Below are positions 3,586-63,376 of a stretch of 64,000 bases of DNA, piece after piece (position 1 is the first letter of the stretch; each line of letters starts with the position of its first letter). The position numbers and the translations under genes are program-made. The DNA is from a virus, in IMG/VR virus record IMGVR_UViG_3300025695_000007, positions 14,692-78,691 of that record; one strand, 5' to 3'. A model generated the notes under the pieces. It saw only the letters and a list, made by a program, of their open reading frames with translations, had not been told where the DNA came from and searched no databases.

Positions 3586-4419
3586 ATGGCATTTAATTTT
3601 TCCGACAAAATAACAGGCTCAGGCAGAAACGCTACACTAATAGTAGACGCCTTAAACTTAGCTTTTCGATGGAAGCATCAAGGACGTACAGACTTTTGCG
3701 ATGATTATGTAAGAACTGTAGAGTCCTTAGCCAGGTCTTATGACTGTAGTAATGTAATTATTACTTCAGATCAAGGGTCTTCCTCGTATCGTAGAGAGAT
3801 TTCTCCTGAATACAAGCAAAATCGAAAAGATAAGTATGCCGAACAAAGCGAAGAAGAAAAGCAAGCATTTGCAGACTTCTTCGAAGAGTTCGAAAATACT
3901 TTAGAGGTTCTAGCAGATATGTTCCCTGTGTTACGATATCAAGGCGTAGAAGCCGATGACATAGCTGCACATCTAGTAAAGAACCGAAAAAGATATGGTC
4001 TTGGAGATATATGGTTAATCTCTAGTGACCGAGACTGGGACTTATTGATAGATGATAAAGTAGCCAGGTTTTCTTATGTAACACGAAAAGAAGTCACAGT
4101 AGATAATTGGGAGGAGCACTATGACGTTACTAGAGATGAATATATCTCTCTTAAGTGCTTGACCGGTGATAAAGGCGATAATGTTGCAGGAATACCTGGC
4201 ATCGGCCCAAAGCGTGCTTTAGACTTAATTCGTGAGTACGGAGACGCTATGGATATTTACAACAGCTTGCCTATAAACAGTAAGTATAAACATATACAAG
4301 CATTGAATGATAGTGGTGAACAATTACTTACTAATTATCAATTAATGGACTTAGTAACATATTGCGATGATGCGATAGGATCTGATAATATAGCAGATAT
4401 ACTACGGAAATTTGATTAA
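3586..4419 (+). CDS. Flap endonuclease / 5'-3' exonuclease (T5 D15)
   Basis: LIVDA, YKQNR, EADD, SSDRD, GDKGDNVAGIPGIGPK. Confidence 0.95.
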   Translation: MAFNFSDKITGSGRNATLIVDALNLAFRWKHQGRTDFCDDYVRTVESLARSYDCSNVIITSDQGSSSYRREISPEYKQNRKDKYAEQSEEEKQAFADFFEEFENTLEVLADMFPVLRYQGVEADDIAAHLVKNRKRYGLGDIWLISSDRDWDLLIDDKVARFSYVTRKEVTVDNWEEHYDVTRDEYISLKCLTGDKGDNVAGIPGIGPKRALDLIREYGDAMDIYNSLPINSKYKHIQALNDSGEQLLTNYQLMDLVTYCDDAIGSDNIADILRKFD

Positions 4420-6194
4420 TGAATATTGATATAAACTATAGAAGAGATAACTATTTATCTGAATTCAGTATTAAAACACTAGAAGACAGGTACTTGATAG
4501 ATGGGGAAATCTCTCCACAGGATGCTTTTGCACGTGCAGCAAAAACATTTGCAGATGATGAAGCACACGCACAGAGGCTCTACGACTACGCTAGTAAGTT
4601 ATGGTTTATGTTCTCTACCCCTATACTTAGCAACGGAGGAACCAAACGTGGATTACCTATTAGCTGTTTTCTTAACTATGTGGACGATAGCCGAGCTGGT
4701 ATTACCTCTCACTATACTGAGAATGCTTTTCTATCGTCAGTAGGTGGAGGCATTGGCGGAAGCTGGGACGGGGTCAGGAGCGTAGGCTCAAAAACGAGCA
4801 ATGGCTCCGAAAGTACAGGAGTAATACCCTTTCTCAAAGTAGTAGACGCAGAAATGTTGGCATTCTCTCAAGGAGTAACTCGTCGAGGCAGCTATGCTGC
4901 TTATCTTGACATGGGACACCCAGAGATTGAAGAGTTTCTAGACATTCGTAAGCCTACGGGTGGAGATATTAACCGTAAATCCATTAATCTACATCACGGC
5001 GTAGTAATTAGTGATAAATTTATGGAAATTATCGAAAATGCTACTCGAATTGAAGGATTTGATGACTCTTGGGATTTGATTGATCCACACAGTAAGCGAG
5101 TTACTAAAACTGTATCGGCAAAGGCACTCTGGGTAAAGCTTATTCAAAATCGTGTTGAAACGGGCGAGCCTTACATCATGTTTGGGGATACTGTGCAAGC
5201 TGCGTTACCCTCGTTCCAAAAAGAACTTGGATTAGTAGCACGTCAATCAAACCTTTGCTCTGAAATTACACTTGCAACAGATAAAGATCGTACTGCGGTT
5301 TGTTGCTTATCAAGTGTAAATCTAGAAGAATATGACGAGTGGAGAGACGACCCTAATTTCATTCCAGACTTAGTAAGAATGCTAGACAATGTATTAACAC
5401 ATTTTATTACGAACGCTCCTAATGAGCTAGAGAAAGCAAAATATAGTGCATTTAGGGAAAGAAGTATTGGTCTTGGGGCCATGGGCTTTCATGCACATTT
5501 ACAAAGGCATAATATTGCTTTTGAAAGTGCAATGGCAAAAGGCAGGAATATGCAAATGTTTAAGCATATTAAATCGGAGGCAGAACGTGCTACTCGAATT
5601 CTTGCGGAAGAGCGTGGTGAGTGTCCGGACGGAGTTGGTCATGGTGTTCGCAATGCTCATTTATTGGCTATCGCTCCTAATGCTTCTAGTAGTATTATCT
5701 GTGGTAATACTAGCCCAAGCATTGAACCCTACCGTGCTAATGCATATGTACAGAAAACTAAAACAGGCTCTTCGCTTATGAAGAATGAATACCTAGAGCA
5801 TCACTTAGATGAGATAGGGCATAACACTGAAGAAGTTTGGAAGAGTATTACAACGAATAATGGTTCAGTAGCACATTTAGACTTTTTAGATGATTGGACA
5901 AAAGATGTATTTAAGACAGCAGTAGAGATAGATCAAAGATGGGTAGTTGATATGGCTGCCGATAGGCAGAAAGAAATTTGTCAGGCTCAATCTTTGAATC
6001 TGTTTTTTCCTGGAAATGTCTCAAAGCAGGAACTTCATGCAGTACATATGATGGCTTGGAAGCAAAAAGTAAAAACTCTTTATTATTTGCGAAGCGAAGC
6101 GTTAAAAAGGGCAGATAATGTGTCAGTAGAGGCACTAAGGCAGTATATTTTCGATACAATCGATGAGGGCGCTTGTTTAGCGTGTGAGGGGTAG
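4419..6194 (+). CDS. nrdA: Class I ribonucleotide reductase alpha subunit (short, no ATP cone)
   Basis: ISCF, SNLCSEI, VCCL, IAPNASSS, TLYYLR, C-terminal CLAC. Confidence 0.96.
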   Translation: MNIDINYRRDNYLSEFSIKTLEDRYLIDGEISPQDAFARAAKTFADDEAHAQRLYDYASKLWFMFSTPILSNGGTKRGLPISCFLNYVDDSRAGITSHYTENAFLSSVGGGIGGSWDGVRSVGSKTSNGSESTGVIPFLKVVDAEMLAFSQGVTRRGSYAAYLDMGHPEIEEFLDIRKPTGGDINRKSINLHHGVVISDKFMEIIENATRIEGFDDSWDLIDPHSKRVTKTVSAKALWVKLIQNRVETGEPYIMFGDTVQAALPSFQKELGLVARQSNLCSEITLATDKDRTAVCCLSSVNLEEYDEWRDDPNFIPDLVRMLDNVLTHFITNAPNELEKAKYSAFRERSIGLGAMGFHAHLQRHNIAFESAMAKGRNMQMFKHIKSEAERATRILAEERGECPDGVGHGVRNAHLLAIAPNASSSIICGNTSPSIEPYRANAYVQKTKTGSSLMKNEYLEHHLDEIGHNTEEVWKSITTNNGSVAHLDFLDDWTKDVFKTAVEIDQRWVVDMAADRQKEICQAQSLNLFFPGNVSKQELHAVHMMAWKQKVKTLYYLRSEALKRADNVSVEALRQYIFDTIDEGACLACEG

Positions 6195-6195
6195 A

Positions 6196-7158
6196 ATGAG
6201 CAATTTATTAGAAGAAAGAGAGTATTACAAACCATTTAATTATCCGTGGGCTTTTGAACATTATAAAGCTCAACAGCAAATGCATTGGCTGCCAGATGAA
6301 GTAAATCTGGCAGACGATCTAAAAGACTATAGAGAAAAGTTGTCTCCTGGCAATCGACGCTTAGTCAATCAGATATTTCGTTTCTTTACACAGGCAGATG
6401 TAGATGTGTGCTGTGGGTATGCAAAGCATTACCTGCCCACATTTAAGCAACCTGAAGTACGAATGATGCTATCTGCATTTGCAGCAATGGAAGCAGTACA
6501 CCAAGAAGCGTACTCTTTATTACTCGAGACTCTTGGCTTTGACGATTCTGAGTACCAAAAGTTTTATGAGCACAAAGAGATGCTAGATAAGCATGAGCAT
6601 CTTTCAAACTTTGGTATGAGTACAAAAATGGACATAGCAAAGACTATGGCTATCTACTCAGGTTTTACAGAAGGAGTACAGCTCTTTAGTAGTTTTGCGA
6701 TTCTTCTTAACTTTCCTCGTCACAACCTTATGAAAGGTATGGGGCAGATTGTTACTTGGTCGATTCGAGATGAGAGCCTTCACGTAGAAGGCATGAGCCA
6801 GCTTTTCCGTACTTTTATTCAAGAGAACCCAGAGTTGTGGAATGATGAGCTGAAGTATGAAATATATTGTGCCGCAGAGCGTACTGTAGAATTGGAAGAT
6901 GCGTTTATTGATCTTTGCTTTGAAGGTGCAGATGTGCCAGACTTAACTCCAGAAGAAGTCAAGTCATATATTCGTTATATTGCAGATCGAAGATTACTAG
7001 GTCTAGGCATGAAGAAAATATTTCATAGCGAGAAGAATCCTCTTGGATGGTTAGATTATATGCTCAACGGGGTTGAACATACTAACTTCTTTGAGAATCG
7101 CGCCACTGAGTACTCAAAAGCGAGTACTACTGGTAACTGGCAAGATATATTTAAATAG
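6196..7158 (+). CDS. nrdB: Ribonucleotide reductase beta subunit
   Basis: FFTQAD, EAVHQEAY, RDESLH, NFFENRATEY; ATG at 6196 preferred. Confidence 0.96.
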   Translation: MSNLLEEREYYKPFNYPWAFEHYKAQQQMHWLPDEVNLADDLKDYREKLSPGNRRLVNQIFRFFTQADVDVCCGYAKHYLPTFKQPEVRMMLSAFAAMEAVHQEAYSLLLETLGFDDSEYQKFYEHKEMLDKHEHLSNFGMSTKMDIAKTMAIYSGFTEGVQLFSSFAILLNFPRHNLMKGMGQIVTWSIRDESLHVEGMSQLFRTFIQENPELWNDELKYEIYCAAERTVELEDAFIDLCFEGADVPDLTPEEVKSYIRYIADRRLLGLGMKKIFHSEKNPLGWLDYMLNGVEHTNFFENRATEYSKASTTGNWQDIFK

Positions 7159-8258: not shown

Positions 8259-10808
8259 TTATTCGTAAGTTGCGACTTGAGCAAGAACGTCAAACGAATT
8301 ATTTGATACTTTTATAACAGTAAAAGTATAAACTTCAGTACTATTGGGAGTTGCGCTAGTTGGCGCACCGCCTAACCACTTGATTGAAGCAGGAGCAGAG
8401 CCATCTATTGTTACATCAGTAACATAATATGCATTAGGGCCGTGGACTAAAGCAACAGCAAATGTCCTCACCCCTCCATTTTCCATTACAGAATTTAATG
8501 TAGCTGAAGTGGTCGCTGCAATATTAACCGTCCTATTCGCCTGCTGCCAATAAGGAGCGTAATAAACAGAATGCTTCTCAGCATATACATTGAATATGCC
8601 AGCTGAGGTAAAGTCTGTAAAAAATGCCTCTTCAATTCCAGTAGTTTTTATAGTGCCACTAGAAAATCCTGCGGTTTCTGCTGCATCTAATACATAAGGT
8701 TGAGCGTTTGGTAACTGATAGATGTATGCTTTACCAGAACTATTACCACCAGCATCATCTTCTAATTGAGCGCCAACAATTGCATAGTTACCGCTTATTG
8801 CTACTGGAAGACCAAAATAATCACTAGCACTTGTTGAATAAGCGTTGGGATTGTCGAGTGTATGAACCAGTGATCCAGTTGTTACATCGAAGATATATGC
8901 TTTACCTGATTGAGTACCACCAGCATCATCTTCAAACCAAGCGCCAACAATCGCATAGTTACCTGATATAGCTACCGACTCACCAAATCTATCATTAGCA
9001 CTTGTTGAATAAGCATTGGGATTGTCGAGTGTATGAAGTAAAGCACCTGTTGATACATTGAAAATATAGGCTTTACCGGAACTAGCACCACCAGCATCAT
9101 CTTCTAAATAAGCGCCAACAATCGCATAGTTACCTGATATAGCTACTGAAAGCCCAAAATTATCACCACCACTTGTTGAATAAGCATTTGGATTATCTAG
9201 CGTATGAAGTAATGCGCCAGTTGTGACGTTAAAAATATATGCTTTACCAGAACTATTACCCCCGGCATCATCTTCGTTTTTAGCACCAACAATCGCATAG
9301 TTACCTGATATTGCTACTGACCAACTAAAATAATCAGAGCTACTCGTTGAATAAGCGTTAGGATTGTCGAGTGTATGAACCAGTGATCCAGTTGTTACAT
9401 CGAAGATATATGCTTTACCTGATTGAGTACCACCAGCATCATCTTCATAAGAAGCGCCAACAATAGCATAATTACCAGATATGGCTACTGAGATACCAAA
9501 ATAATCACTAACACTAGTACCATAAGCGGTAGGATTGTCGAGTGTGTGAAGTAAAGCACCTGTTGTTACATCAAAGATATATGCTTTACCTGAACTAAGA
9601 TTACCAGCATCATCTTCGTTTTTAGCACCAACAATCGCATAGTTACCTGATATAGCTACTGAAAGCCCAAAATTATCACCACTACTATTACCATAAGCAT
9701 TTGGATTATCGAGTGTATGGACCAGTGATCCAGTAGTGACGTTAAAAATATATGCTTTACCAGAACTATTACCCCCGGCATCATCTTCTAAATAAGCGCC
9801 AACAATTGCATAGTTACCGCTTATTGCTACTGGAAGACCAAAATAATCACTAGCACTTGTTGAATAAGCGTTGGGGTTATCTAGCGTATGGAACAGCGAT
9901 GCTGTAAATGAAGACCCGCCTGAAGCATCAGCAAACGATAGAGTACCGGAACCATCAGTTGTTAAAACTTGACCTGCGTTCCCATTAGATACCGGCAAAG
10001 TCAAAGTGTATCCAGAATTATTTGTCATATCAGGAATTTTAATGACGACATTATTACCTGAAAAATGCCTTAGCTCAATTCCTGATTGTTGGTCCCCCCA
10101 ATCTTTTCGGATAGGGAGATAGTTTAATGGAGAGGTATATTGAAGAAGGCTAACCTCTGTAAGTTGACCTACCGCATATATCCCGTGATTATTACCATTT
10201 AAGATATTACCTAACGCAGGGGAAGAGTCTTCAAAAACACTGGAGATTCCGCCAGAAGCTGGTGTAGACCAAGACAGAGCACCGGAACCATTGGTAGTTA
10301 AAACTGTACCTTCAGTTCCGTCAGACGTTGGGAATGTGTACGAATTATTGAAGGTGATTGGACCAGTACTAGCAATCCCAATTCGAGTCTGGTTTTCGGT
10401 GAGTAAACTTATGGTCCCGCCGCCGGATTCACTAGTGCCTGCAATTAAAGACATGCTACTATTAGCGGTACTAATCGACAGCGGATTAACGTTTGATTGA
10501 ACCCCTGTAAGAGCAGCAGCATCCATAATCTTGAGCATTTCAGTTGATCCGCTCTTAAATAAAGCTGTTCCTGAAAATGCCTTCGAGTTTAAGTCAAGAT
10601 CACCACCCAACTGCGGAGTGGTATCTTCTACAACATTAGAGATGCCGCCAGAAGCATCAGTAAATGATAGCGTACCGGAACCATCAGTAGCTAGTACTTG
10701 ACCAGCAGTACCGTCAGTTGCGGGATAATTTAGCCCGCCCACTGAAGCTAAATCACCGTTTGCGTCTAAATTTCTTGTAAAATTTGATAATTTAAGGCTT
10801 GTTGACAT
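8259..10808 (-). CDS. Tail fibre/adhesin with seven FG-GAP-like repeats (beta-propeller)
   Basis: GQVLxTDGSGxLSF and EDTTPQLGGDLD fibre modules; 7 x 57-aa repeats with FG...AIVGA. Confidence 0.85.
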   Translation of the reverse strand: MSTSLKLSNFTRNLDANGDLASVGGLNYPATDGTAGQVLATDGSGTLSFTDASGGISNVVEDTTPQLGGDLDLNSKAFSGTALFKSGSTEMLKIMDAAALTGVQSNVNPLSISTANSSMSLIAGTSESGGGTISLLTENQTRIGIASTGPITFNNSYTFPTSDGTEGTVLTTNGSGALSWSTPASGGISSVFEDSSPALGNILNGNNHGIYAVGQLTEVSLLQYTSPLNYLPIRKDWGDQQSGIELRHFSGNNVVIKIPDMTNNSGYTLTLPVSNGNAGQVLTTDGSGTLSFADASGGSSFTASLFHTLDNPNAYSTSASDYFGLPVAISGNYAIVGAYLEDDAGGNSSGKAYIFNVTTGSLVHTLDNPNAYGNSSGDNFGLSVAISGNYAIVGAKNEDDAGNLSSGKAYIFDVTTGALLHTLDNPTAYGTSVSDYFGISVAISGNYAIVGASYEDDAGGTQSGKAYIFDVTTGSLVHTLDNPNAYSTSSSDYFSWSVAISGNYAIVGAKNEDDAGGNSSGKAYIFNVTTGALLHTLDNPNAYSTSGGDNFGLSVAISGNYAIVGAYLEDDAGGASSGKAYIFNVSTGALLHTLDNPNAYSTSANDRFGESVAISGNYAIVGAWFEDDAGGTQSGKAYIFDVTTGSLVHTLDNPNAYSTSASDYFGLPVAISGNYAIVGAQLEDDAGGNSSGKAYIYQLPNAQPYVLDAAETAGFSSGTIKTTGIEEAFFTDFTSAGIFNVYAEKHSVYYAPYWQQANRTVNIAATTSATLNSVMENGGVRTFAVALVHGPNAYYVTDVTIDGSAPASIKWLGGAPTSATPNSTEVYTFTVIKVSNNSFDVLAQVATYE
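8715..9900 (-). repeat. Seven tandem ~171-bp coding repeats
   Basis: HTLDNPNAY...VAISGNYAIVGA...EDDAGG..SGKAYIF repeated with high DNA identity. Confidence 0.92.
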
Positions 10809-47962: not shown

Positions 47963-48171
47963 CTCGCAAATACAGTAACGACAAGGCCTGCTAGAAAGAC
48001 AATAACTGCACCACCAACGGCTACAATTCGTCCTTCTATGCGCTCAACAGCCTTTTCGATATCGCCAAGACGCTGAAAGTTTGTCTTCCAACGTTCTTCG
48101 CACTGTACCTCATGCCGATCTAATTGATTCTCGAGCGTATGTATTCGCTCTTCAACTCTATCCTCCACCAT
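47959..48171 (-). CDS. Coiled-coil protein with C-terminal TM (possible lysis accessory)
   Basis: HEVQCEERW coiled coil plus hydrophobic tail. Confidence 0.6.
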   Translation of the reverse strand: MVEDRVEERIHTLENQLDRHEVQCEERWKTNFQRLGDIEKAVERIEGRIVAVGGAVIVFLAGLVVTVFAR

Positions 48172-48619
48172 TGAGTAATTTCTCCATCAACTTTCCATAG
48201 TTTCCTTGACCAAAAGGTATAGCTTCATTAATTTGAACATTTGTCTGGTTCTTGATTGAGGCGGAAGAAGCTTTCTCAAGCTCTACTTGTGCCTTAATCT
48301 CGTCCATACGCATTTTATGAGCCATCTGTAGTAGGTCTGCTAAATCTTTCTTAGAATAGATTCCTGTTTCAGTTGCTTCTTCAAGTTTTGAAGCTATTAT
48401 ATCGTCCATAACCGAAGCAATATTCCCTCGGTTGCGATATCCCATATCAAGGTACACGGTGTCAATGTACTGCTTTACTTCTCTTTTGTTCAGGGTAGAC
48501 ACAACCGTATCTTCAGCAATGCTAAGATAGTTGCATACTTCACGAATATTTCCGTATTGTAAATACAGATTCGCTATTTCAATCCCTTCTGGAGATATTG
48601 TTGTTAATTCTTTTGCCAT
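48158..48619 (-). CDS. Terminase small subunit (T5-like)
   Basis: ISPEG...ANLYL, GYRNR, KLEE, NYGKLM; ATG at 48619. Confidence 0.8.
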   Translation of the reverse strand: MAKELTTISPEGIEIANLYLQYGNIREVCNYLSIAEDTVVSTLNKREVKQYIDTVYLDMGYRNRGNIASVMDDIIASKLEEATETGIYSKKDLADLLQMAHKMRMDEIKAQVELEKASSASIKNQTNVQINEAIPFGQGNYGKLMEKLLNGGG

Positions 48620-48625
48620 TTTTGA

Positions 48626-48654
48626 ATTATACTGCATGACACAATTAAAGTCAA
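48626..48654 (-). promoter_or_regulatory. Sigma70 promoter, probably leaderless TerS mRNA
   Basis: TTGACT-17-TATAAT, ATG 6 nt after -10. Confidence 0.8.
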
Positions 48655-48665
48655 GAAATTTTTTT

Positions 48666-49259
48666 CTATCCCCACTGTAAAGCCATTGCTGCTGCGATTC
48701 CAAAATAGGTAACGGAACGTTCGTGCCCAGAACCTCCGCCAAGTCGCGATTGCCCACTATCGGACTGATTTGCCCAACGAGGCTTACCGTCCACCCAGCG
48801 GGGTTCGACATATTCGCTAGGAACTAGGGCAGGTAAGTTTCGAAGCCACAAACCTGTCTTCTTTGAAGCATCTTCTCCAAAATCATAGGGTTGTACATAT
48901 TGAGGCTTGGGCATAAAATCAAGTCGAGTACTAATACATCCTACAGGATTCTCGATGCACATATGTTTTACAGGAGCTTTCCACAACTTTTCGATAAATT
49001 TTAAACTTTCCTCGGTTTTGAGAGCGCGCTCTGGTTGTCGCTTGTTCCAATGTAGTCCCGAGGCCGCTAGATAGGTACAGGGTGGATGTAAAATTGCCAT
49101 ATCCCACGAATTTTCATACAAAACTTTTACCACATCGTCGACAATATGAGGGCCGGGAGCTTCTGTTGGTAGTAAGTCGCACGAGATGGCCTCATGACCC
49201 ATTGCCAAGAAGCAGTCACGAACAACGCCGGAAAATTCACACCCAATTAATATTTTCAT
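48666..49259 (-). CDS. Short DNA cytosine-C5 methyltransferase-like protein
   Basis: CEFSG, SCDL, HPPCT, IENP, KKTGLW; ATG at 49259. Confidence 0.82.
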   Translation of the reverse strand: MKILIGCEFSGVVRDCFLAMGHEAISCDLLPTEAPGPHIVDDVVKVLYENSWDMAILHPPCTYLAASGLHWNKRQPERALKTEESLKFIEKLWKAPVKHMCIENPVGCISTRLDFMPKPQYVQPYDFGEDASKKTGLWLRNLPALVPSEYVEPRWVDGKPRWANQSDSGQSRLGGGSGHERSVTYFGIAAAMALQWG

Positions 49260-49265
49260 ACAAGT

Positions 49266-49294
49266 ATTATACTTCAATTTTTTGAAATTGTCAA
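49266..49294 (-). promoter_or_regulatory. Sigma70 promoter, probably leaderless methyltransferase mRNA
   Basis: TTGACA-17-TATAAT, ATG 6 nt after -10. Confidence 0.82.
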
Positions 49295-49390
49295 GAATTT
49301 TTTGCAATCGTCGTTTCCCCGCTACTTCGCGTGAAAAAGCGATTTTTGAAAATTTATAAAGTTGTACGTGTGGGGGAGCGCCTGGTCGCC

Positions 49391-49411
49391 AAATGAGAAT
49401 GAGTCTCATTA
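49391..49411. promoter_or_regulatory. Fur-box-like palindrome 1
   Basis: AAATGAGAATGAGTCTCATTA. Confidence 0.6.
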
Positions 49412-49494
49412 CCGCCCCCTCCTGGCATTTCATGTGACTTGCGGAACGATCGTTTTTTTAAGCGAAATTTAGATTTACTATCGAATTTTTTCAT

Positions 49495-49600
49495 TACACT
49501 TTTTTGCTCAATTTGCTACTATTACCTGGCTAGACAAGAGAGCGGGCAGGCAAAATTGATACAAAATAATACTTGCATTTTCCGCTCAATTTGCTAGAAT
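49495..49600 (+). promoter_or_regulatory. Tandem pre-early-type promoters
   Basis: TTACAC..TACTAT and TTGCAT..TGcTAGAAT, sharing repeat GCTCAATTTGCTA (49506, 49584). Confidence 0.6.
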
Positions 49601-49637
49601 GTACTCACTGACTAGGCGAGAGCCTCTCACTAAACCT

Positions 49638-49658
49638 AAATGATAATGATTCTTATTT
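49638..49658. promoter_or_regulatory. Fur-box-like palindrome 2, abutting RBS
   Basis: AAATGATAATGATTCTTATTT immediately before GGAG (49659-62). Confidence 0.65.
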
Positions 49659-49668
49659 GGAGAATACT

Positions 49669-49986
49669 ATGACAGTTTACACAAAAGAAATGCTTGGCGC
49701 TATGGTCAAAGCCTCTCCTCTCAATCTTGAAATTGCGAAAGACTTTGCTGCTACTTTTACAGAGCAAACTAAAAGCAAGGTTTCTGTCCAATCGGTTATC
49801 GCCAAGGCGAAAGCGGAAGGCATAGAATATATTGCGAAAGCACCCGCTGCAAAGCGAGCGAAAGGCGCGACCAAGACTCAATTGGTCGATGCTATCGCAA
49901 AAAAGACCAACGCCAAGTTGAGCGGACTCGAGAAGGCTACCGCACAGAGCTTGGCGAACTTGCTAGACTCACTTACTGGCTCTTAG
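49669..49986 (+). CDS. T5 A2/D3-family DNA-binding protein (105 aa)
   Basis: YT.E...SVQSVIAK...Y...TKTQLV..IA...GLEKA pattern shared with 54235-54555. Confidence 0.72.
   Translation: MTVYTKEMLGAMVKASPLNLEIAKDFAATFTEQTKSKVSVQSVIAKAKAEGIEYIAKAPAAKRAKGATKTQLVDAIAKKTNAKLSGLEKATAQSLANLLDSLTGS
49899..49956 (+). other. Probable programmed -1 frameshift signal (A_AAA_AAG + hairpin)
   Basis: In-phase heptamer 49899-49905, 5-nt spacer, stem CGCCAAGTT(49911-19)/AGCTTGGCG(49948-56). Confidence 0.68.
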
Positions 49987-50156
49987 ATTGGATTGGTACG
50001 GCTGCCTTAGCAGTCGCACCATTTATCATCGATTCACCCGAAGGAAAAACGTTAGCAGCGGTAGGGTTGAGCCTTCTCACACTACAAGCGATTCGCACTA
50101 GGACTTACAATCTCATCGCGCTGAATATTATTGGAATTATAGGTTATTTATCATGA
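49905..50156 (+). CDS. Start-less membrane ORF (about 3 hydrophobic segments) in -1 frame
   Basis: ...LTYWLLDWIGTAALAVAPFIIDSPEGKTLAAVGLSLLTLQAIRTRTYNLIALNIIGIIGYLS*; ATGA overlap with next gene. Confidence 0.7.
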   Translation, partial: DQRQVERTREGYRTELGELARLTYWLLDWIGTAALAVAPFIIDSPEGKTLAAVGLSLLTLQAIRTRTYNLIALNIIGIIGYLS

Positions 50157-50626
50157 TTATTTTCGACTTAGATCACACTGTTATCGACTCATCTCACCGC
50201 GCTGTCACGCGAGCAGATGGGACGCTTGATCTCGATGCATGGCGAGCTTGCTCGACTTGGGAATATATTTGCAGGGATTCGCTGCTACCGATTGCACAGC
50301 TATGGCGCTCAGCTATGAGACGAGGCGAGCATATTATTATATGTACAGCTCGCGTTATGACCGCTGCTGATTTTCTTTTTCTCGAAGCGTACGGCTTGCA
50401 ATTTAACGCTTGCCTCTCACGCGATGGCGAGAGAGACACTCGAGCAGATTGGGCATTGAAGCGCGACTTGCTCACTGATTATGCCCAATCCCTTGGCTTA
50501 TCATGGCGACGATTCGCTGCCGATTGCGTGGCATACGATGACAATAAAGCGATTCTCGATTATTACACTCATGCAGGGATTCTCGCGCATGATGCAATCG
50601 AACTCAATAAGAGGTTGGCACAATGA
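50153..50626 (+). CDS. HAD-superfamily phosphatase (PNKP phosphatase-like)
   Basis: IFDLDHT, ICTAR, K, AYDDN. Confidence 0.85.
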   Translation: MIIFDLDHTVIDSSHRAVTRADGTLDLDAWRACSTWEYICRDSLLPIAQLWRSAMRRGEHIIICTARVMTAADFLFLEAYGLQFNACLSRDGERDTRADWALKRDLLTDYAQSLGLSWRRFAADCVAYDDNKAILDYYTHAGILAHDAIELNKRLAQ

Positions 50627-51297
50627 ATAACGCTAAGAAAATAATTATGGTGCTCGATACCGAAACTGCCGATCTCACTGGTTCGGTTTACGATGTTGGC
50701 TACACGATCACCAATAAGCGCGGCGAGATTATTCTCTCGCGCAATTGGCTCGTTGAAGAAATTTTCACGGATGCGAAGAAGATGATGGGCGCATTCTATG
50801 CGGGGAAAATTTTTACGCACTATGCCCCCATGTTACAGCGCGGCGAAATTCGCCTCGCCCCTTGGCTCGAGATTGTCGAGACCATGCGAGCCGATATTCT
50901 AGAATATTCGGTTAATATTCTCGCTGCTTATAATCTGCCTTTTGACACTCGCGTTATGCGCAACACGCATTCCGCGCTAGGTTATACCGACAAAATTCTG
51001 CCGCACTCGCTTGACCAATTGTGTATTTGGCAATTTGCTTGCGAGACAAAACTGAATACTCGACTCTATAAAGATTTAGCGAAACAAAAGGGATGGGTTA
51101 GCGATGCAGGCAATATTCGCACGGGGGCAGAATACGCCTACCGATTTTGCGCGGGGGATTGGGGTTTTATTGAAGATCACACAGCTTTGAGCGATGCAAT
51201 TATCGAGACCGAAATTCTCGCTCGCTGCTTTGCTACTGGCGCAAAAATTCCCTACAACAAGAAATCTGCAATGCCTTGGAGGATTGTAAATGCCTAG
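50623..51297 (+). CDS. DEDDh 3'-5' exonuclease (DnaQ-like)
   Basis: LDTET, AYNLPFD, HTALSDA. Confidence 0.88.
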   Translation: MNNAKKIIMVLDTETADLTGSVYDVGYTITNKRGEIILSRNWLVEEIFTDAKKMMGAFYAGKIFTHYAPMLQRGEIRLAPWLEIVETMRADILEYSVNILAAYNLPFDTRVMRNTHSALGYTDKILPHSLDQLCIWQFACETKLNTRLYKDLAKQKGWVSDAGNIRTGAEYAYRFCAGDWGFIEDHTALSDAIIETEILARCFATGAKIPYNKKSAMPWRIVNA

Positions 51298-51901
51298 CAA
51301 GAAAAAATTATTAGCGGAATTGAACCGACTGGTTGAAAACAATAGCGACTCGCTCGCTATTGTTTTCGAGGGCAGGGATTCGGCAGGAAAGAGCGGCACA
51401 ATTAAAATGCTCTCTCAATATCTGCCGCCGAATTTATTCTCAATTGAGCATTCCAAGAAACCTAGCAAGCGCGCTATGCGAAATTGGTTCGGTTACTGGA
51501 ATAAGCGTTTACCTAAGCGCGGGCAGGTTCGATTTTTTGATCGCTCATGGTATAGCCGTGCATTGGTGCAGCGCGTGAATGCATGGTGCAGCGAGAAACA
51601 AGCGCAAAATTTTCTAGCGAACGTTTCCGATTGGGAACAGCAATCAGGAACGCGCATTATTAAATTCTATTTATCGATCTCAAAGGACGAACAACAATAC
51701 AGACTGAACAAGCGAAGAAAATCGCCTCTCACCTATTGGAAATTTTCCGCTAATGATAAACTTGCTCTTGATTCTTTTGACCGCATGACACTCGCGAAAG
51801 AAGAATGCATCGGCGCGGATTGGATCGTTGTCGATTACAATGACAAACGGGCAGGTCGCATCGCTTTATTGGAACGCTTGATTCAGGAGTTAAAAAAATG
51901 A
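51290..51901 (+). CDS. ppk2: Polyphosphate kinase 2 family protein
   Basis: VFEGRDSAGKSGTIK, FDRSWY, KFYLSISKDEQ..R, P...WKFS..D. Confidence 0.92.
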   Translation: MPSKKKLLAELNRLVENNSDSLAIVFEGRDSAGKSGTIKMLSQYLPPNLFSIEHSKKPSKRAMRNWFGYWNKRLPKRGQVRFFDRSWYSRALVQRVNAWCSEKQAQNFLANVSDWEQQSGTRIIKFYLSISKDEQQYRLNKRRKSPLTYWKFSANDKLALDSFDRMTLAKEECIGADWIVVDYNDKRAGRIALLERLIQELKK

Positions 51902-52287
51902 CTTGCTATGTTGCAATTGCTGCGGATATAAATAATAAGCTAGAAACTTTTTATTATATAAAAATCGGTCAAACTCGAGGTTTTCCTAATGCGCGTTGCA
52001 ACGCTCAACGATTGAAACTTGTTTGGACGACTCATTACCAAGAAAAAATCCTCCTAGCTCTTGCCTTCGATATATTCGGAGAATCGGCGCATGATTATAG
52101 ATGTTGTGGCTATACCGAATCCTTTGGAAACTTTCAGACAGCAATTGAAGCGTTTAACAATACTTTATTGCTTGCAGAAACTTTACAGGGTAATTGGGTT
52201 TCTTTTGATAGAAGACGAAAAAAACCTTGCTATGACTTGCACCCGATGGCGGAACACTTGATACAGGAAATTAAAAATGGACAATAA
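51898..52287 (+). CDS. Hypothetical protein (IKIGQT, T5orf172/GIY-YIG-like start)
   Basis: AGGAG RBS; ATGA overlap. Confidence 0.55.
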   Translation: MTCYVAIAADINNKLETFYYIKIGQTRGFPNARCNAQRLKLVWTTHYQEKILLALAFDIFGESAHDYRCCGYTESFGNFQTAIEAFNNTLLLAETLQGNWVSFDRRRKKPCYDLHPMAEHLIQEIKNGQ

Positions 52288-52366
52288 CTTTTTTACTGCC
52301 TTGCTTTTCATTTTCGTTTTCGGCATGGCATTTTATTTACCAATCGGTTTTTTACTCTCATTCTAA
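52277..52366 (+). CDS. 29-aa hydrophobic peptide
   Basis: MDNNFFTALLFIFVFGMAFYLPIGFLLSF; AGGA RBS; precedes terminator. Confidence 0.5.
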   Translation: MDNNFFTALLFIFVFGMAFYLPIGFLLSF

Positions 52367-52380
52367 AACACACATTCCAG

Positions 52381-52421
52381 AAAATCCGCGTTAGCTCCAG
52401 GGCTCTCGCGGATTTTTTTTT
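52381..52421. terminator. Intrinsic terminator ending pre-early operon (possibly bidirectional)
   Basis: AAAATCCGCG...CGCGGATTTTTTTTT. Confidence 0.82.
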
Positions 52422-52469
52422 GTCCGATAAAAAACGGGCATTCCAGAATCGCCAGGGCTGGACGATCCC

Positions 52470-52490
52470 AAATGAGAATCATTCTCATTT
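52470..52490. promoter_or_regulatory. Fur-box-like palindrome 3 (perfect 10-1-10)
   Basis: AAATGAGAAT-C-ATTCTCATTT. Confidence 0.68.
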
Positions 52491-52499
52491 CGGCGCCCC

Positions 52500-52772
52500 G
52501 GCGCCAGTGCGAAAGCGAAGTGGAATTACGATGGTGTCGCTCGCGCCATTGTACCAAATCGAGCGGGGTTTGTCAAGTCTTTTTTTGAGGTTCGGTGAAA
52601 TTAGTCCGGGCAGGGCTAGTCTCCGCAGATAGTAAAGCATTTACTTGCATAAACCCCGCAACGATTATTAAAGTAATTGCTTTAATAACGAGGCGCCGAA
52701 GTGCAAAGTCGAAAATCAACGCAAATGGTGGGCCGCGCCGATTATAGCAGACCCCCACGGGGTTTGTCAAGT
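52500..52772 (-). repeat. Two degenerate ~80-bp units, each with a leftward sigma70 promoter
   Basis: GGCGCC..AGTGC.AAAG.CGAA...ATGGTG...CGCGCC...CGGGGTTTGTCAAGT twice; TTGACA-17-TACAAT (52548-76), TTGACA-18-TATAAT (52741-70). Confidence 0.75.
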
Positions 52773-52874
52773 GTTATTTACAATTTCCTTAAATTAATCC
52801 CACACGCTTGGTCTTCTGAGACCCCGTAGAAACCCCGCAACGGGGTTTATGTGTAAAAAACTTAAATTTTTACA

Positions 52875-52943
52875 CATATCGAGGCAAATATGAGTAAATT
52901 TTAGAAAAATTACCCATATGCGAGGCAAATTCTAGTAAATTTG
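52875..52943 (+). repeat. Imperfect direct repeat, ~41-bp period
   Basis: CATAT(G)CGAGGCAAAT..AGTAAATTT twice. Confidence 0.7.
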
Positions 52944-53035: not shown

Positions 53036-53064
53036 TTGACGAAGTGGTAGAACTTTAGTATAAT
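53036..53064 (+). promoter_or_regulatory. Early sigma70 promoter
   Basis: TTGACG-17-TATAAT. Confidence 0.8.
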
Positions 53065-53092
53065 ATATACATTCTTAAAAAAGGAAGAAAAA

Positions 53093-53260
53093 ATGAGAAA
53101 CAATCTACTTGAGTTAGTCGACGAAGGCTGGTTAAACAACAGAGAAGTTTTAATCGCTTGTATTAAGTACATGAGCGAAGATGAAGTAAAAGATATGATG
53201 GAAGTAAACGAATACACTGATCTTTGGACACGATATCAGGAGTGGATAGCCGATGACTAG
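53093..53260 (+). CDS. Small acidic hypothetical protein (55 aa)
   Basis: MRNNLLELVDEG...KYMSEDEV; AAGGA RBS; not in track. Confidence 0.7.
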   Translation: MRNNLLELVDEGWLNNREVLIACIKYMSEDEVKDMMEVNEYTDLWTRYQEWIADD

Positions 53261-53849: not shown

Positions 53850-53870
53850 CTTATGTGTTGAAAAAAATTC

Positions 53871-53899
53871 TTGACAATTTTAAGAAAGTTTAGTATAAT
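53871..53899 (+). promoter_or_regulatory. Early sigma70 promoter
   Basis: TTGACA-17-TATAAT with A-rich UP element. Confidence 0.85.
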
Positions 53900-53927
53900 A
53901 TACACATAATGAAAAAAGGAGACAGCA

Positions 53928-54023: not shown

Positions 54024-54238
54024 ACCCTACACCAAAAATAGAAGCACAAATTGAAAAATTAGAGTTGCTTCATAAAGAATTAGATGATTTAATGGAAGCT
54101 CTGAACGACTGCGAGTGGAGACTCGAAGAGCAGCAAGAAATCTATGAAGCACTACTCGCAAAGTACAAAGGCGAGATTCCATTAATCTGGAAAATATATT
54201 CAACAACACAAACAATTAGCGAGGAAGACTATCTATGA
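53996..54238 (+). CDS. Coiled-coil hypothetical protein
   Basis: AGGAG RBS; heptad pattern. Confidence 0.65.
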   Translation: MGNIIQLVVDPTPKIEAQIEKLELLHKELDDLMEALNDCEWRLEEQQEIYEALLAKYKGEIPLIWKIYSTTQTISEEDYL

Positions 54239-54555
54239 GCAATTATACTGAAGAACAAACCTTGCAGATGATTCAGGAGTACACTGCAACCCCGTCGAGA
54301 GCTACAGTAGAAGCATTGGCGGAGAAATACGAAAAGTCGATTAAGTCAATCATTGGTAAGCTAGCACGAGAAGGAGTTTATCAACGACAGAGTTATAAAA
54401 CGAAGACTGGAGACACACCAGTAACGAAAGAAGAGTTAGTAAATGAAATCGCGGCGGGGTTGAGCATAGACCCAGAAAAGCTAGTAGGACTAGAGAAATC
54501 TCCAAAGCAAACACTAAAGAATATTGCGGAAAAACTAGGTGCCCTAGGGATATAA
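54235..54555 (+). CDS. T5 D3-like DNA-binding protein
   Basis: NYTEE...SIIGKLAREGVY...KEELV..IA...LEKSPK..L. Confidence 0.78.
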   Translation: MSNYTEEQTLQMIQEYTATPSRATVEALAEKYEKSIKSIIGKLAREGVYQRQSYKTKTGDTPVTKEELVNEIAAGLSIDPEKLVGLEKSPKQTLKNIAEKLGALGI

Positions 54556-60026: not shown

Positions 60027-60143
60027 TTGAATAAGTTAAAGACTTACGATAGAGCATGCAGGTTTTGTGCGCTCGTAGAAGGAGTAGCATTGTGTGCAAT
60101 AAGCATAATGATACCTTTCAGTATCGTAGCAACCAATATGTAA
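60027..60143 (+). CDS. 38-aa hydrophobic peptide
   Basis: AGGAGA RBS, TTG start; CRFC plus TM. Confidence 0.5.
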   Translation: MNKLKTYDRACRFCALVEGVALCAISIMIPFSIVATNM

Positions 60144-60150
60144 GACCAGC

Positions 60151-60179
60151 GGGGTCGGGAGAAATCTCGACCCTTTTTT
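60151..60179 (+). terminator. Intrinsic terminator
   Basis: GGGTCGGGA-GAAA-TCTCGACCC-TTTTTT. Confidence 0.82.
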
Positions 60180-60193
60180 CTTTGGAGAAAAAT

Positions 60194-61468
60194 ATGATAA
60201 AAAAAGCTATAGCTATAAGCGTGGCGCTAGTAGGGACAGTGGACGCACAAACCTACACTGACGGCGTTGCAGATATTATCAATAACAACTGTGTAGTTTG
60301 TCACCGTGAAGGTGGCATAGGTCCCATGAGCTTTGAGACTTACGAGCAAGTACGTCCCTGGGCTCCTCTCATCTCAATGCGAGTAGCAAATCGAGAAATG
60401 CCTCCGTACGCATATGATCACGGTATCGGCATACAAGACTTACAAGGAGACTGGCGTCTCTCACAAGAAGAAATTGATTCAGTAGTGAATTGGGTCGCAG
60501 CGGGGTCATTATATGGCGATCCTGATAGAATAGTACAAGCACCTGAAATGAAAGATCCAGAAGCATGGAACTTCGAAGCAGACTTCGGCGCACCAGACGC
60601 AATCATTCCTTCAGTAGCTATTGACATTCCTGCAAACGGAAACGATCTGTGGCACAAGCATTTAGTACCAACAGGTCTTACTGAAGATCGATGCATCAAA
60701 GCAGTACAAGTAAAACCACGAGGCGAAGCAAAGGCAGTAGTACACCACGCTAACTCTAGTATTATTACTTCAGAAGGGCGTGAAGGCATGCTCACGGAGT
60801 ACGCTATGGGAAAGTGGGGAGAGATAGTTCCAGAAGGAGTATGTCGAACTATCCCAGCAGACGCACAAGTAAGTTGGGACATTCATATGTTTCCAGGTGG
60901 ACTTGGCGCAATGGCTCCAGGAGCGGTTATCAAAGACAACGTAGTGGAAATTGGACTTTGGTTATATACAGAAGAGGAAAGCGCACAACTGAAATACAAA
61001 CAAGATTTGAGTTTGTATCGCCTTGGAGATCAGGACGATTTAGTAGTCCCACCCAATGGATATGCAATGACACAGGGCTTTCACAGTTTCGATCATCCTG
61101 TACGTTTAGATAGTTTTCAGCCGCATGGTCACTTGCGTATGAATGCAGCGAGCCTTGAGATTTTTTACCCAGAAACTGGTCGCACTCAAGCCATAAGTCA
61201 GATATCTAAGTGGAGCGCTACGTGGCATCATAGTCATTTGTATGCTCCAGAAGTTGCACCTCTCATACCAGCAGGCGCTGTGATTGTACTCAAGCAATGG
61301 TATGACAATACTGCAAACAATCCAAATAATCCTGACCCAGATATGTTTGTAATGGGTGGCTCACGTACAGGAGATGAAATGACTCACGCTTGGCTTGCTA
61401 TCACACACCTAGATGACGAAGGATTTGAGCAATTGAAAGCACAGCGAAGTGCAATGGGAGATGATTAA
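60194..61468 (+). CDS. Exported cytochrome c - copper type II (PHM/DBH-like) monooxygenase fusion, copy 1
   Basis: Signal peptide; CVVCH...MPP; VVHH, DIH, PHGH, DEM copper ligands; GGAG RBS at ATG 60194. Confidence 0.82.
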   Translation: MIKKAIAISVALVGTVDAQTYTDGVADIINNNCVVCHREGGIGPMSFETYEQVRPWAPLISMRVANREMPPYAYDHGIGIQDLQGDWRLSQEEIDSVVNWVAAGSLYGDPDRIVQAPEMKDPEAWNFEADFGAPDAIIPSVAIDIPANGNDLWHKHLVPTGLTEDRCIKAVQVKPRGEAKAVVHHANSSIITSEGREGMLTEYAMGKWGEIVPEGVCRTIPADAQVSWDIHMFPGGLGAMAPGAVIKDNVVEIGLWLYTEEESAQLKYKQDLSLYRLGDQDDLVVPPNGYAMTQGFHSFDHPVRLDSFQPHGHLRMNAASLEIFYPETGRTQAISQISKWSATWHHSHLYAPEVAPLIPAGAVIVLKQWYDNTANNPNNPDPDMFVMGGSRTGDEMTHAWLAITHLDDEGFEQLKAQRSAMGDD

Positions 61469-61629
61469 TGACTAATTCAGTATTAAACATACACGGACTC
61501 AGCAAGGACGGTGCTCAGTGGGTTATTGACACTTTTGGAGAAGCTGCCAAAGAGTCTAACTATCAAACTAATAAAACTATGCAGATGTGGATAGAACAAT
61601 CCCAAGCAGTTTTAGATGAGGAAGAGTGA
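61468..61629 (+). CDS. Small acidic hypothetical protein (53 aa)
   Basis: TAATG and TGATG coupling; not in track. Confidence 0.6.
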   Translation: MTNSVLNIHGLSKDGAQWVIDTFGEAAKESNYQTNKTMQMWIEQSQAVLDEEE

Positions 61630-61775
61630 TGGCAGTTAGTATTATATTTTATGTTCTGTTATTAACACCACCTGTACTGTTTTTAGGATTGACCTACGGC
61701 GATAGAAAAGAAACAGGAAAGTGGTTCTGGCAAAAAGCGAAGTCAGGAGTTAATTCTGGCGCTAAATTTGGATAG
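61629..61775 (+). CDS. Small single-TM protein (48 aa)
   Basis: MAVSIIFYVLLLTPPVLFLGLTY...; coupled start. Confidence 0.58.
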   Translation: MAVSIIFYVLLLTPPVLFLGLTYGDRKETGKWFWQKAKSGVNSGAKFG

Positions 61776-61785
61776 GAGTAGATTA

Positions 61786-62154
61786 ATGCCAACATTAAAA
61801 CAAGCACGAAACGGTTTATGGGGTTCTTTAATTATATTTTTAGGACTTCTTGCATTTCAGTTCGTAGTATTATTAGGAGCAAGAACTTTATACGCACAAG
61901 AGGTAGACCTTAGTTCAGTAGAAATTAAATGGAAAACCTGTGCAGCATGTCACGGCACTAAGGCAGAGGGTAAGCCAGGGTTTCCTAGTTTAAACTGGAT
62001 GGAAGAAGATTACATTGTAGAAGCATTGACTGACTACAAGCAGATGATTAATCGTGGCGACATGAGTGGCATCATGTTTGGACAAGCCGCTACTCTATCA
62101 GATGAAGAGATAGAACTGATGGCGAAATATATCAAGGAGATGATCAATGACTAG
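61786..62154 (+). CDS. Monoheme cytochrome c (c553/c4-like)
   Basis: N-terminal TM/signal; CAACHG, PSL, YK...R, IM..QA..LSDEEI. Confidence 0.92.
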   Translation: MPTLKQARNGLWGSLIIFLGLLAFQFVVLLGARTLYAQEVDLSSVEIKWKTCAACHGTKAEGKPGFPSLNWMEEDYIVEALTDYKQMINRGDMSGIMFGQAATLSDEEIELMAKYIKEMIND

Positions 62155-63376
62155 ATTAAATTCAGCAGCTGCTACTCTCGGTATTATAGTATTGCTGCTC
62201 GGTCTTAGGGCAGAAGCTAGTGAATACGCAGAGAATGTAGCACCCATCTTTGTAGAGCAGTGCCAAAGCTGTCACCGTGAAGGTGGTATAGCACCATGGG
62301 CAATGACCGACTACAGAATGCTTCAAGCGTTTGCGCCTGCAATCAAAGAAGCAATAGTAAATCTAGAGATGCCTCCTGGGCAGATCAATCGTAAGTATGC
62401 AGATGTGATTATTAATCATCGTACACTTAGCGATTATGAGATGCAAACTATTGTATCTTGGATTGATGCCGGTGCACCTGTTGAAGGCGATAGAGATCCT
62501 CTAACAGAAACAGTGTACTCTACTTCAGAGTGGGTACACGGTGAGCCTGATATGATTGTTGAAGTACCTGCACAAGAGATACCTGCAGGCCCATCAGCAA
62601 TACCTTATCGTTATGTCGGTGTTGATTTAGGTCTCACTGAAGATAAGTGGCTACGGGGTTCAGAATATCTACCTTCAGAGCCTACTGTCATGCATCATAT
62701 GCTAAACTCAGTAGCAGTACCTGGCGAGCGCAATGGTAACATCTTGGGCACACAAGGTGCTGGTCAAGAAGAAATGAACTATGCTTCTATCAGTGCCTAT
62801 GTACCTGGAGGCGATCCTGACTTCTATGATGAGAATACTGGGGGACTGTTGCGGGCAGGTAGTAAAGTGAACTTGCAACTACATTACACACCAGATGGAA
62901 CACCTCGAACTGATAAAGCTCGAATTGGTTTGTACTTTCATGATGAAGGGGTAGTACCAGAAGAAAGAATGGCAGGCGACTGTGCTTGTATCTTTCCTGA
63001 CAAGTGGACACCAATTCCACCGTATGATCCTAACTTCATGCAAGAAGCAGATGTTGTTTTAAAGAATGATGTAATGCTGCATACGTTTCTACCTCATATG
63101 CATTTCCGTGGTAAAGCAATGCGAGCAACTGCATTCTATCCAGACGGCACAGAAGAAGAGCTGATTGATATTCCTCGTTATGAGTATGCTTGGCAGCTTT
63201 CATACACATGGAGAGAGCCTAAGTTCTTGCCTGCAGGAACTAGACTACATGTACAAGGATGGTTTGACAACTCAGCAGATAACCCTATGAACCCAGACCC
63301 CAGCAGAGAAGTACCTTGGGGACAGATGTCTGAAGATGAGATGTTTTTTGGAGCATTTACTTGGAAGAACTACTAA
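62147..63376 (+). CDS. Exported cytochrome c - copper type II monooxygenase fusion, copy 2
   Basis: Signal peptide; CQSCH...MPP; VMHH, QLHY, PHMH, DEM. Confidence 0.85.
   Translation: MTRLNSAAATLGIIVLLLGLRAEASEYAENVAPIFVEQCQSCHREGGIAPWAMTDYRMLQAFAPAIKEAIVNLEMPPGQINRKYADVIINHRTLSDYEMQTIVSWIDAGAPVEGDRDPLTETVYSTSEWVHGEPDMIVEVPAQEIPAGPSAIPYRYVGVDLGLTEDKWLRGSEYLPSEPTVMHHMLNSVAVPGERNGNILGTQGAGQEEMNYASISAYVPGGDPDFYDENTGGLLRAGSKVNLQLHYTPDGTPRTDKARIGLYFHDEGVVPEERMAGDCACIFPDKWTPIPPYDPNFMQEADVVLKNDVMLHTFLPHMHFRGKAMRATAFYPDGTEEELIDIPRYEYAWQLSYTWREPKFLPAGTRLHVQGWFDNSADNPMNPDPSREVPWGQMSEDEMFFGAFTWKNY

Follow-up and report, generated by a model that had tools for sequence, protein, structure and literature searches.

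What binds three Fur-box-like palindromes that lie close together in an uncultured relative of phage T5, and why do they resemble the operators of an iron-responsive host regulator? We address this question for a stretch of viral DNA of 64,000 nucleotides (nt), positions 14,692 to 78,691 of IMG/VR record IMGVR_UViG_3300025695_000007, hereafter called the window, and for the genome that the complete record represents. The three palindromes (boxes 1 to 3) are most likely protein-binding sites of the pre-early ("first-step-transfer") module common to T5-like phages, as judged from their sequence and location. The best-supported binder would be host Fur, to which we assign a probability of roughly 0.48, with an A2-like phage protein as its chief rival. 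The boxes are:

49391 to 49411, unstranded: box 1, Fur-box-like palindrome, 15/16 consensus positions
49638 to 49658, unstranded: box 2, Fur-box-like palindrome, 15/16 consensus positions
52470 to 52490, unstranded: box 3, perfect palindrome, 16/16 consensus positions

Rarity of the boxes and their likeness to Fur operators

An earlier note, made from the letters of the window, had described these palindromes, and both their letters and their coordinates proved correct. Using the perfect copy as a query with up to three mismatches (≤3), we recovered exactly three places, compared to 0 matches in 100 dinucleotide-preserving shuffles that served as control. Boxes 1 and 2 each differ from the perfect copy at 2–3 positions and box 3 at 0–1. 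The whole 78,691-bp genome was also scored for agreement with the Fur consensus AATGANAATNATTNTCATT, a 19-bp inverted repeat in which 16 positions are specified. The next best site after the boxes reaches 13/16, followed by ten sites with 12/16, and the observation of the earlier note, which had noticed no comparable site elsewhere in the window, holds for the entire genome, in which nothing beyond the three boxes exceeds 13/16. Three sites are clustered within 3.1 kb and none is found in the rest of the 78.7 kb, with a chance expectation of zero. The palindromes are therefore confirmed as a feature far beyond chance. Boxes 1 and 3 had also been said to share their flanks; box plus flank, 31 nt in total, are 84% identical and form a repeat family. 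A lone half-box, AAATGAGAAACAATCT, lies at window positions 53091–53106 (12/16), just past a consensus promoter at 53036–53064.

To what extent such sequences mark Fur operators in bacteria can be judged from bacterial genomes. In Escherichia coli K-12, the pattern with ≤2 mismatches finds 22 sites, compared to one for the control. The four sites with ≤1 mismatch precede gpmA, the TonB-dependent receptor gene yoeA, ryhB, and nohD(nohB). Chen et al. 2007 (PMC2189734) placed their strongest Fur clusters at the same four and obtained gel shifts for three. In the metagenome-assembled genomes (MAGs) of marine Gammaproteobacteria into which relatives of the phage were binned, sites with ≤1 mismatch precede three TonB-dependent receptor genes as well as genes for an iron-type periplasmic binding protein, the haem-utilisation protein HemS/ChuX, and an ECF sigma factor. 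Judged by sequence, the phage boxes are putative Fur operators of the first rank in the relevant bacteria. The boxes of IHF, ArgR, Zur, PurR, and NrdR presumably fit the sequence less well than Fur.

With 15–16 of the 16 specified positions, the phage boxes equal the four strongest E. coli clusters (gpmA, yoeA, ryhB, nohA/nohB). In addition, the E. coli clusters of fepD-entS and fecA are likewise placed between promoter and start codon (PMC2189734), as is box 2. The phage sites differ from the E. coli operators in that they belong to a lytic phage, that two of the three lie away from a promoter, and that they lack overlap in 6-bp phase. One of the E. coli matches (NC_000913.3, 580592–580610) is flanked by ylcI and nohD in the prophage DLP12 and corresponds to what Chen et al. 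2007 (PMC2189734) listed as the nohB cluster; another at 1636591 is linked to the nohA cluster by coordinate alone. These strong matches upstream of DNA-packaging genes in cryptic lambdoid prophages constitute a second link between Fur sites and phage packaging. The literature we searched contained no report linking Fur with T5 pre-early DNA.

The boxes in T5-like phages and uncultured relatives

The 78,691-bp record is a circularised metagenome assembly whose ends overlap by 127 bp, and for this reason the true termini cannot be read from it. The phage encodes a tape-measure protein and a J-like tail fibre, which identifies it as a siphovirus; since these are its large genes, N4-type hairpin promoters for a virion RNA polymerase were ruled out as an explanation for the palindromes. 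Its best cultured matches are T5-like phages (Demerecviridae), with TerL 45–49% identical (48–49% to the Demerecviridae, the long-terminal-repeat packagers with which it groups by this protein), portal 36%, prohead protease 48%, and capsid 26%. No near-identical cultured relative was found, and the first search returned a single 80-nt match. With a genome of 78.7 kb compared to about 105–125 kb, the phage is a sister lineage of the Demerecviridae without a cultured member rather than a member of the family.

We next consider where the pattern occurs in seven T5-like genomes (T5, chee130_1, bux, KIT04, PVo5, VF16, and phi3), scanned with ≤2 mismatches. It is present only within or beside the terminal repeat and absent from the other ≥100 kb, while the reversed pattern gave 0–1 matches. 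A 100-nt query around box 1 retrieved 402 phage records, nearly all of them T5-like, with hosts among Salmonella, Escherichia, Vibrio, Aeromonas, Klebsiella, Pectobacterium, and Yersinia, and a query around box 3 behaved alike. Boxes are also retained in the IMG/VR relatives L004 and L005, so that conservation in relatives, which the earlier note had named as a test, was found in both groups. Two classes of sites can be told apart by the elements next to them:

49342 to 49420, plus strand: conserved left-terminus element, which includes GTTGTACGTG, a run of G, a stretch rich in GC, box 1, and then ACCGCCCCC
52491 to 52522, unstranded: GC-rich palindrome CGGCGCC..GGCGCC with AGTGCGAAAGCG behind it, conserved in every IMG/VR relative

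Box 1 represents the class found at the left terminus. The element that contains it is 78% identical to positions 167–249 of Vibrio phage KIT04, adjoining dmp, and the right half of the box, GTCTCATTA, is common to box and element. Sites of this class are flanked by CC and ACCGCCCC and adjoin the 3′ end of dmp. According to the annotated ends, the element lies 17 bp from the left end in VF16, whose termini are PhageTerm predictions, and 29 bp in phi3. A degenerate copy is present 14 bp from the genome end of T5, and in chee130_1 a site of this class lies just outside the annotated right repeat. By homology, the physical left end of the present genome is predicted near 49362–49377. In Ermolyevavirinae (KIT04, PVo5, VF16, phi3) and Epseptimavirus, box 1 together with some 80 nt of flanking sequence is 76–78% identical to the window, with the arrangement CC-box-ACCGCCCCC, and the left-terminal element adjoins dmp as it does here. 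In contrast, their dmp, A1, and A2 genes are transcribed towards the end, whereas the operon of the window runs away from it, comprises only 3.1 kb, lacks A1, and contains an exonuclease-like gene and a gene for polyphosphate kinase 2 (PPK2).

Box 3 belongs to a class located behind the terminator of the last rightward pre-early gene and directly against the GC-rich palindrome, of which a TCGGCGCGCC version is retained in Vibrio T5-like phages. The same position is filled in KIT04, PVo5, and VF16, and the sites lie 500–750 bp inside the terminal repeat and not at its right boundary. Box 3 is identical to T5 9655–9675 (AY543070) at 20 of 21 positions. The T5 copies correspond to the annotated direct repeat C, copies 1–4, and palindromes E, G, and I (H is also listed) of "Repeat Region 3" (AY587007). 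This block adjoins the 7.9% nick as well as the shear point that Davison calculated for the first-transferred DNA, at 9618; the same comparative paper gives no function for the repeats and makes no mention of Fur or iron (bioRxiv 10.1101/866236).

The window shares with Repeat Region 3, which lies in the injection-stop region (iss) of T5, the 19–21 bp core and the location past the last rightward pre-early gene and terminator. The two differ in that T5 has five phased copies beside paired DnaA boxes and nine DRD repeats, whereas this phage has one copy, the GC-rich palindrome in place of these repeats and, 370 bp away, only a single pair of inverted DnaA-consensus boxes. This pair consists of two inverted TTTTACACA boxes at 52850 and 52868 (window 52850–52876), 9 bp apart and about 370 bp to the right of box 3. 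It is the sole adjacent pair in the window and recalls the paired DnaA boxes (IRD'/IRC') of the T5 iss. DnaA boxes are not enriched in the window (7 found versus 7.6 expected), and a DnaA-box cluster as in T5 is not present.

Among the IMG/VR relatives, the flanks of the terminus element are retained throughout. Seven more distant relatives (L007–L010 and L013–L015) keep the terminus element and the GC-rich palindrome but have neither a box nor a substitute palindrome. An A2-like gene was detected in L007–L010 and L013, and the retrieved loci of L014 and L015 yielded none. In L005 and L006, the box is located on the other side of ACCGCCCCC, which indicates that it is a separable module whose position turns over while its sequence is kept. 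A survey of 80 IMG/VR contigs with a perfect box further revealed 11 instances in relatives of a TTGACA-17-TAWAAT-GGCGCS-box arrangement, which places the box at about +4 to +23 of a consensus promoter. In L008 (7780–8070) and other relatives, we additionally observed three tandem modules of a GC-rich palindrome, CGGCGCGGCCGCGCC, beside AGTGCGAAAGCG, in which the opposite strand carries a perfect TTGACA-17-TATAAT promoter that would start transcription into the palindrome. CGGCGCGGCCGCGCC and AGTGCGAAAGCG form a putative conserved promoter-operator unit that is present even in the absence of Fur-like boxes.

The operon between the boxes and its surroundings

The position of each box relative to genes and promoters is given by the following features:

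48158 to 48811, minus strand: small terminase subunit gene (phrog_3802, 6.5e-39), conserved in all relatives
49494 to 49600, plus strand: putative tandem extended –10 promoters (TGcTACTAT at 49514–49522; TTGCAT, 16 nt, TGcTAGAAT at 49573–49600)
49669 to 49986, plus strand: g1, A2-like small protein, first gene of the operon, GGAG/ATG start
50153 to 50626, plus strand: HAD phosphatase, homologue of T5 dmp (deoxynucleoside-5′-monophosphatase; phrog_415, PF25109)
50623 to 51297, plus strand: DnaQ-like exonuclease-type protein (phrog_20187, 6e-46; phrog_192, 3e-5)
51290 to 51901, plus strand: PPK2 (PF03976, 1.8e-47)
51898 to 52287, plus strand: g5, 129 amino acids, no family assigned, not found in relatives
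52381 to 52421, unstranded: terminator-like hairpin ending the operon, AAAATCCGCG...CGCGGATTTT followed by a T run, read directly
52548 to 52576, minus strand: putative leftward sigma-70 promoter (TTGACA, 17 nt, TACAAT, with TG), conserved in L004 and L005
54235 to 54555, plus strand: second A2-like paralogue (phrog_1725, "DNA binding protein")

The gene map bears out that boxes 1 and 3 bracket a five-gene operon (g1-HAD-exo-PPK2-g5), and direct reading of the sequence places box 2, as reported, between the tandem promoters and the ribosome-binding site (RBS) of the first gene. Box 2 occupies about +31 to +51 of the second promoter and ends 1 nt short of the GGAG of g1. Its position is the same in L004 and L005, where the core GAGAATCATTCT is retained together with the TGCTAnnAT motifs of the tandem promoters, which form a repeat family and for which we infer promoter activity. 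Box 3 lies about 50 bp past the terminator, which a simple terminator scan had missed because of its long loop, and at about +51 to +71 of the leftward promoter. The nearest promoter to box 1 is about 85–100 bp away, and the small terminase gene is found close to the terminus element, on its left side.

The first gene product is a paralogue of the 54235–54555 product, for which BLASTP returned the A2 proteins of KIT04 (2e-6) and T5 (9e-5). Comparison of the joint family of both paralogues with the A2 family of T5 and Vibrio phages by hhalign gave a probability of 95.4% (E 1.7e-8), while searches of Pfam and PHROG gave zero matches for g1 and g5. By tblastn, the HAD gene is 39% identical to dmp of KIT04 and 30% to dmp of T5 over 177 amino acids. 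No A1 homologue was detected by tblastn at E 1e-3. Of the T5 pre-early genes, dmp-like and A2-like genes are thus present, and this gene content, together with the lack of A1, indicates that the operon is a reduced counterpart of the T5 pre-early region. The earlier note had placed the boxes on the putative first-injected DNA. The dmp homologue, the A2-like first gene, and the location of box 1 in a left-end element agree with this part of the claim, and the predicted link between the boxes and first-injected DNA is well supported on these comparative grounds.

Several further features surround the operon. Its region 50001–52000 has a GC content of 0.457 compared to a genome average of 0.40, which suggested that the boxes might be recombination scars of a recently acquired gene cassette; this idea was rejected, since the operon and both flanking elements are conserved in relatives. 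A 43-nt inverted repeat (window 49265–49307 and 53858–53900, 86% complementary) flanks the 4.5-kb block that contains the boxes. Its arms are outward-facing consensus sigma-70 promoters (TTGACA-17-TATAAT), and these repeats may delimit a pre-early or terminal-repeat module. A DNA methyltransferase gene (phrog_757; window 48666–49259, minus strand) with its own consensus promoter separates the small terminase gene from the terminus element, an insertion that is absent from this spot in all 12 relatives. With respect to iron, the earlier note correctly remarked that the phage encodes an iron-type ribonucleotide reductase and haem proteins: the large and small chains of a class I enzyme are encoded at window 4419–7158, and a cytochrome c at 61768–62154. 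The latter gene lies between those of two large proteins without a Pfam match (region 60056–63376), which the earlier note had labelled "haem-copper proteins".

Host Fur and its rivals as candidate binders

The earlier note had suggested that host Fur could gate pre-early expression or the injection pause, and this suggestion is supported in part. Fur is proposed as the binder because the sequence of the boxes is that of the strongest natural Fur operators. A dimer of iron-loaded host Fur, or two, would occupy each box. At box 2, it would block RNA polymerase, as it would in relatives at the boxes located about +4 to +23 of consensus promoters, and Fur bound to the boxes would label the two ends of the DNA that enters first. 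This would couple the iron status of the host to pre-early expression and possibly to the pause in injection. We infer Fur binding, repression, iron dependence, first entry, and a role in the injection pause from the sequences described above. Across phages with A2 and TerL proteins of just 26–48% identity, the box stays almost unchanged, and where phage copies do vary, it is at consensus positions 6, 10, and 14, at which the Fur consensus itself is degenerate. Invariance despite such protein drift favors a conserved host protein as binder, and the sequence points to Fur. The absence of the box from L007–L010 and L013–L015 and its displacement in L005 and L006 likewise speak against a fast-evolving phage binder, and the 11 promoter-box arrangements of relatives count for Fur as operator-like placement. 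In a more far-reaching version, iron-loaded Fur would be the conserved host protein for the whole T5 supergroup including the 79-kb marine lineage, gating pre-early transcription, setting or holding the pause, and reading iron status at entry. It would act at the site 14–29 bp from the leading end and at the block where injection pauses. We regard this extension as doubtful.

Several observations weigh against Fur. It is not obvious why a lytic phage should let iron-loaded Fur repress its earliest genes, and the placement of box 2 would fit an autoregulated phage repressor equally well. Only box 2 has an operator-like position, while boxes 1 and 3 overlap no promoter. The boxes of the window are single 19–21-mers in GC-rich flanks without the 6-bp-phased overlapping arrays that are found at strong natural Fur operators and, as phased copies, in the T5 homologues. 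Moreover, position 12 of box 1 is an off-consensus G that is kept across the phage group, which suggests that this half-site serves the terminus element and not Fur. The host is also only hinted at: relatives with 72–77% identical terminases were binned into several marine gammaproteobacterial MAGs, but binning of phage contigs is a weak hint, and GC content was uninformative for host assignment.

The boxes could instead be operators of a phage protein, most plausibly the A2-like products of g1 and 54235–54555. A protein made from the first transcripts would bind box 2 to regulate its own synthesis and shut off the pre-early genes, and boxes 1 and 3 to handle the first-transferred DNA, in which case convergence or mimicry would account for the resemblance to Fur boxes. 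This agrees with the location of box 2 directly between the promoters and the RBS of an A2-like gene, with the confinement of the boxes to the pre-early region in 7/7 T5-like genomes, and with the box right behind strong promoters in relatives, a classic layout for a shut-off repressor. T5 A2 is, furthermore, annotated as a DNA-binding protein required for second-step transfer. However, the A2 family is only 26–30% identical while the box hardly changes, and in the relatives L007–L010 and L013, A2-like genes are present but the equivalent places hold neither a box nor another palindrome in its stead. T5, KIT04, VF16, and phi3 lack a box at their A2 promoters, and a match at all 16 specified Fur positions would be left as an unexplained coincidence. 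We therefore consider an A2-like binder rather unlikely, though it is the strongest of the alternatives.

Box 1, and perhaps box 3, might alternatively be a signal for terminase, packaging, or an ejection protein at the terminal-repeat ends without any regulatory role. The distances of 14–29 bp between box 1-type sites and the physical left end in T5 (the degenerate copy), VF16, and phi3 are in line with such a signal, as are the chee130_1 site just outside the right repeat, the proximity of the small terminase gene, and the off-consensus G that the phage group retains in the right half. Yet relatives retain the terminus flanks (GTTGYRCGTG ... GTCTnnTAACCGCCCCC) without the palindrome, and in L005 and L006 the palindrome is displaced; it is therefore separable from the terminus signal. 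The box 3-type sites lie off the right boundary of the repeat, and box 2 is left unexplained, which makes this alternative improbable. Still less probable is that the palindromes act purely as nucleic-acid structures with no dedicated binder, either as RNA hairpins that stabilise, terminate, or process transcripts or as DNA cruciforms. On either strand, box 3 folds into a hairpin of 9 bp (z –2.8 and –3.6), and it would be transcribed from the leftward promoter at 52576–52548. In contrast, the box 2 hairpin, which lies in the 5′ leader, does not surpass shuffled sequence (z –0.9), so that sequestration of the RBS by an RNA hairpin was rejected, and no known RNA family was matched in Rfam. The differences between box 2 of the window and of L004/L005 are non-compensatory while the hexamer core is retained, the stems are AT-rich with no U run behind them, and the constancy of a 19-bp sequence in different hosts and phages is left unexplained by structure alone. 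Structure-only explanations are accordingly weak.

Host Fur, the binder that we favor, would bear on a long-standing question. To our knowledge, the two-step DNA injection of T5 has had no molecular explanation for about 60 years, and we know of no binding protein assigned to the repeat block at its stop point, which has been catalogued since the 1980s. The boxes survive nearly unchanged in a distant 79-kb marine lineage, where they are also found at the leading genome end and behind strong promoters, and the present comparison adds the contrast that relatives keep A2-like genes yet lack the boxes. If Fur does not bind them, the sites would still represent a conserved operator for a phage protein. 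If it does, they would provide a concrete factor for the injection pause of T5 and the first case of a lytic phage that wires its earliest genes to the iron sensing of its host.

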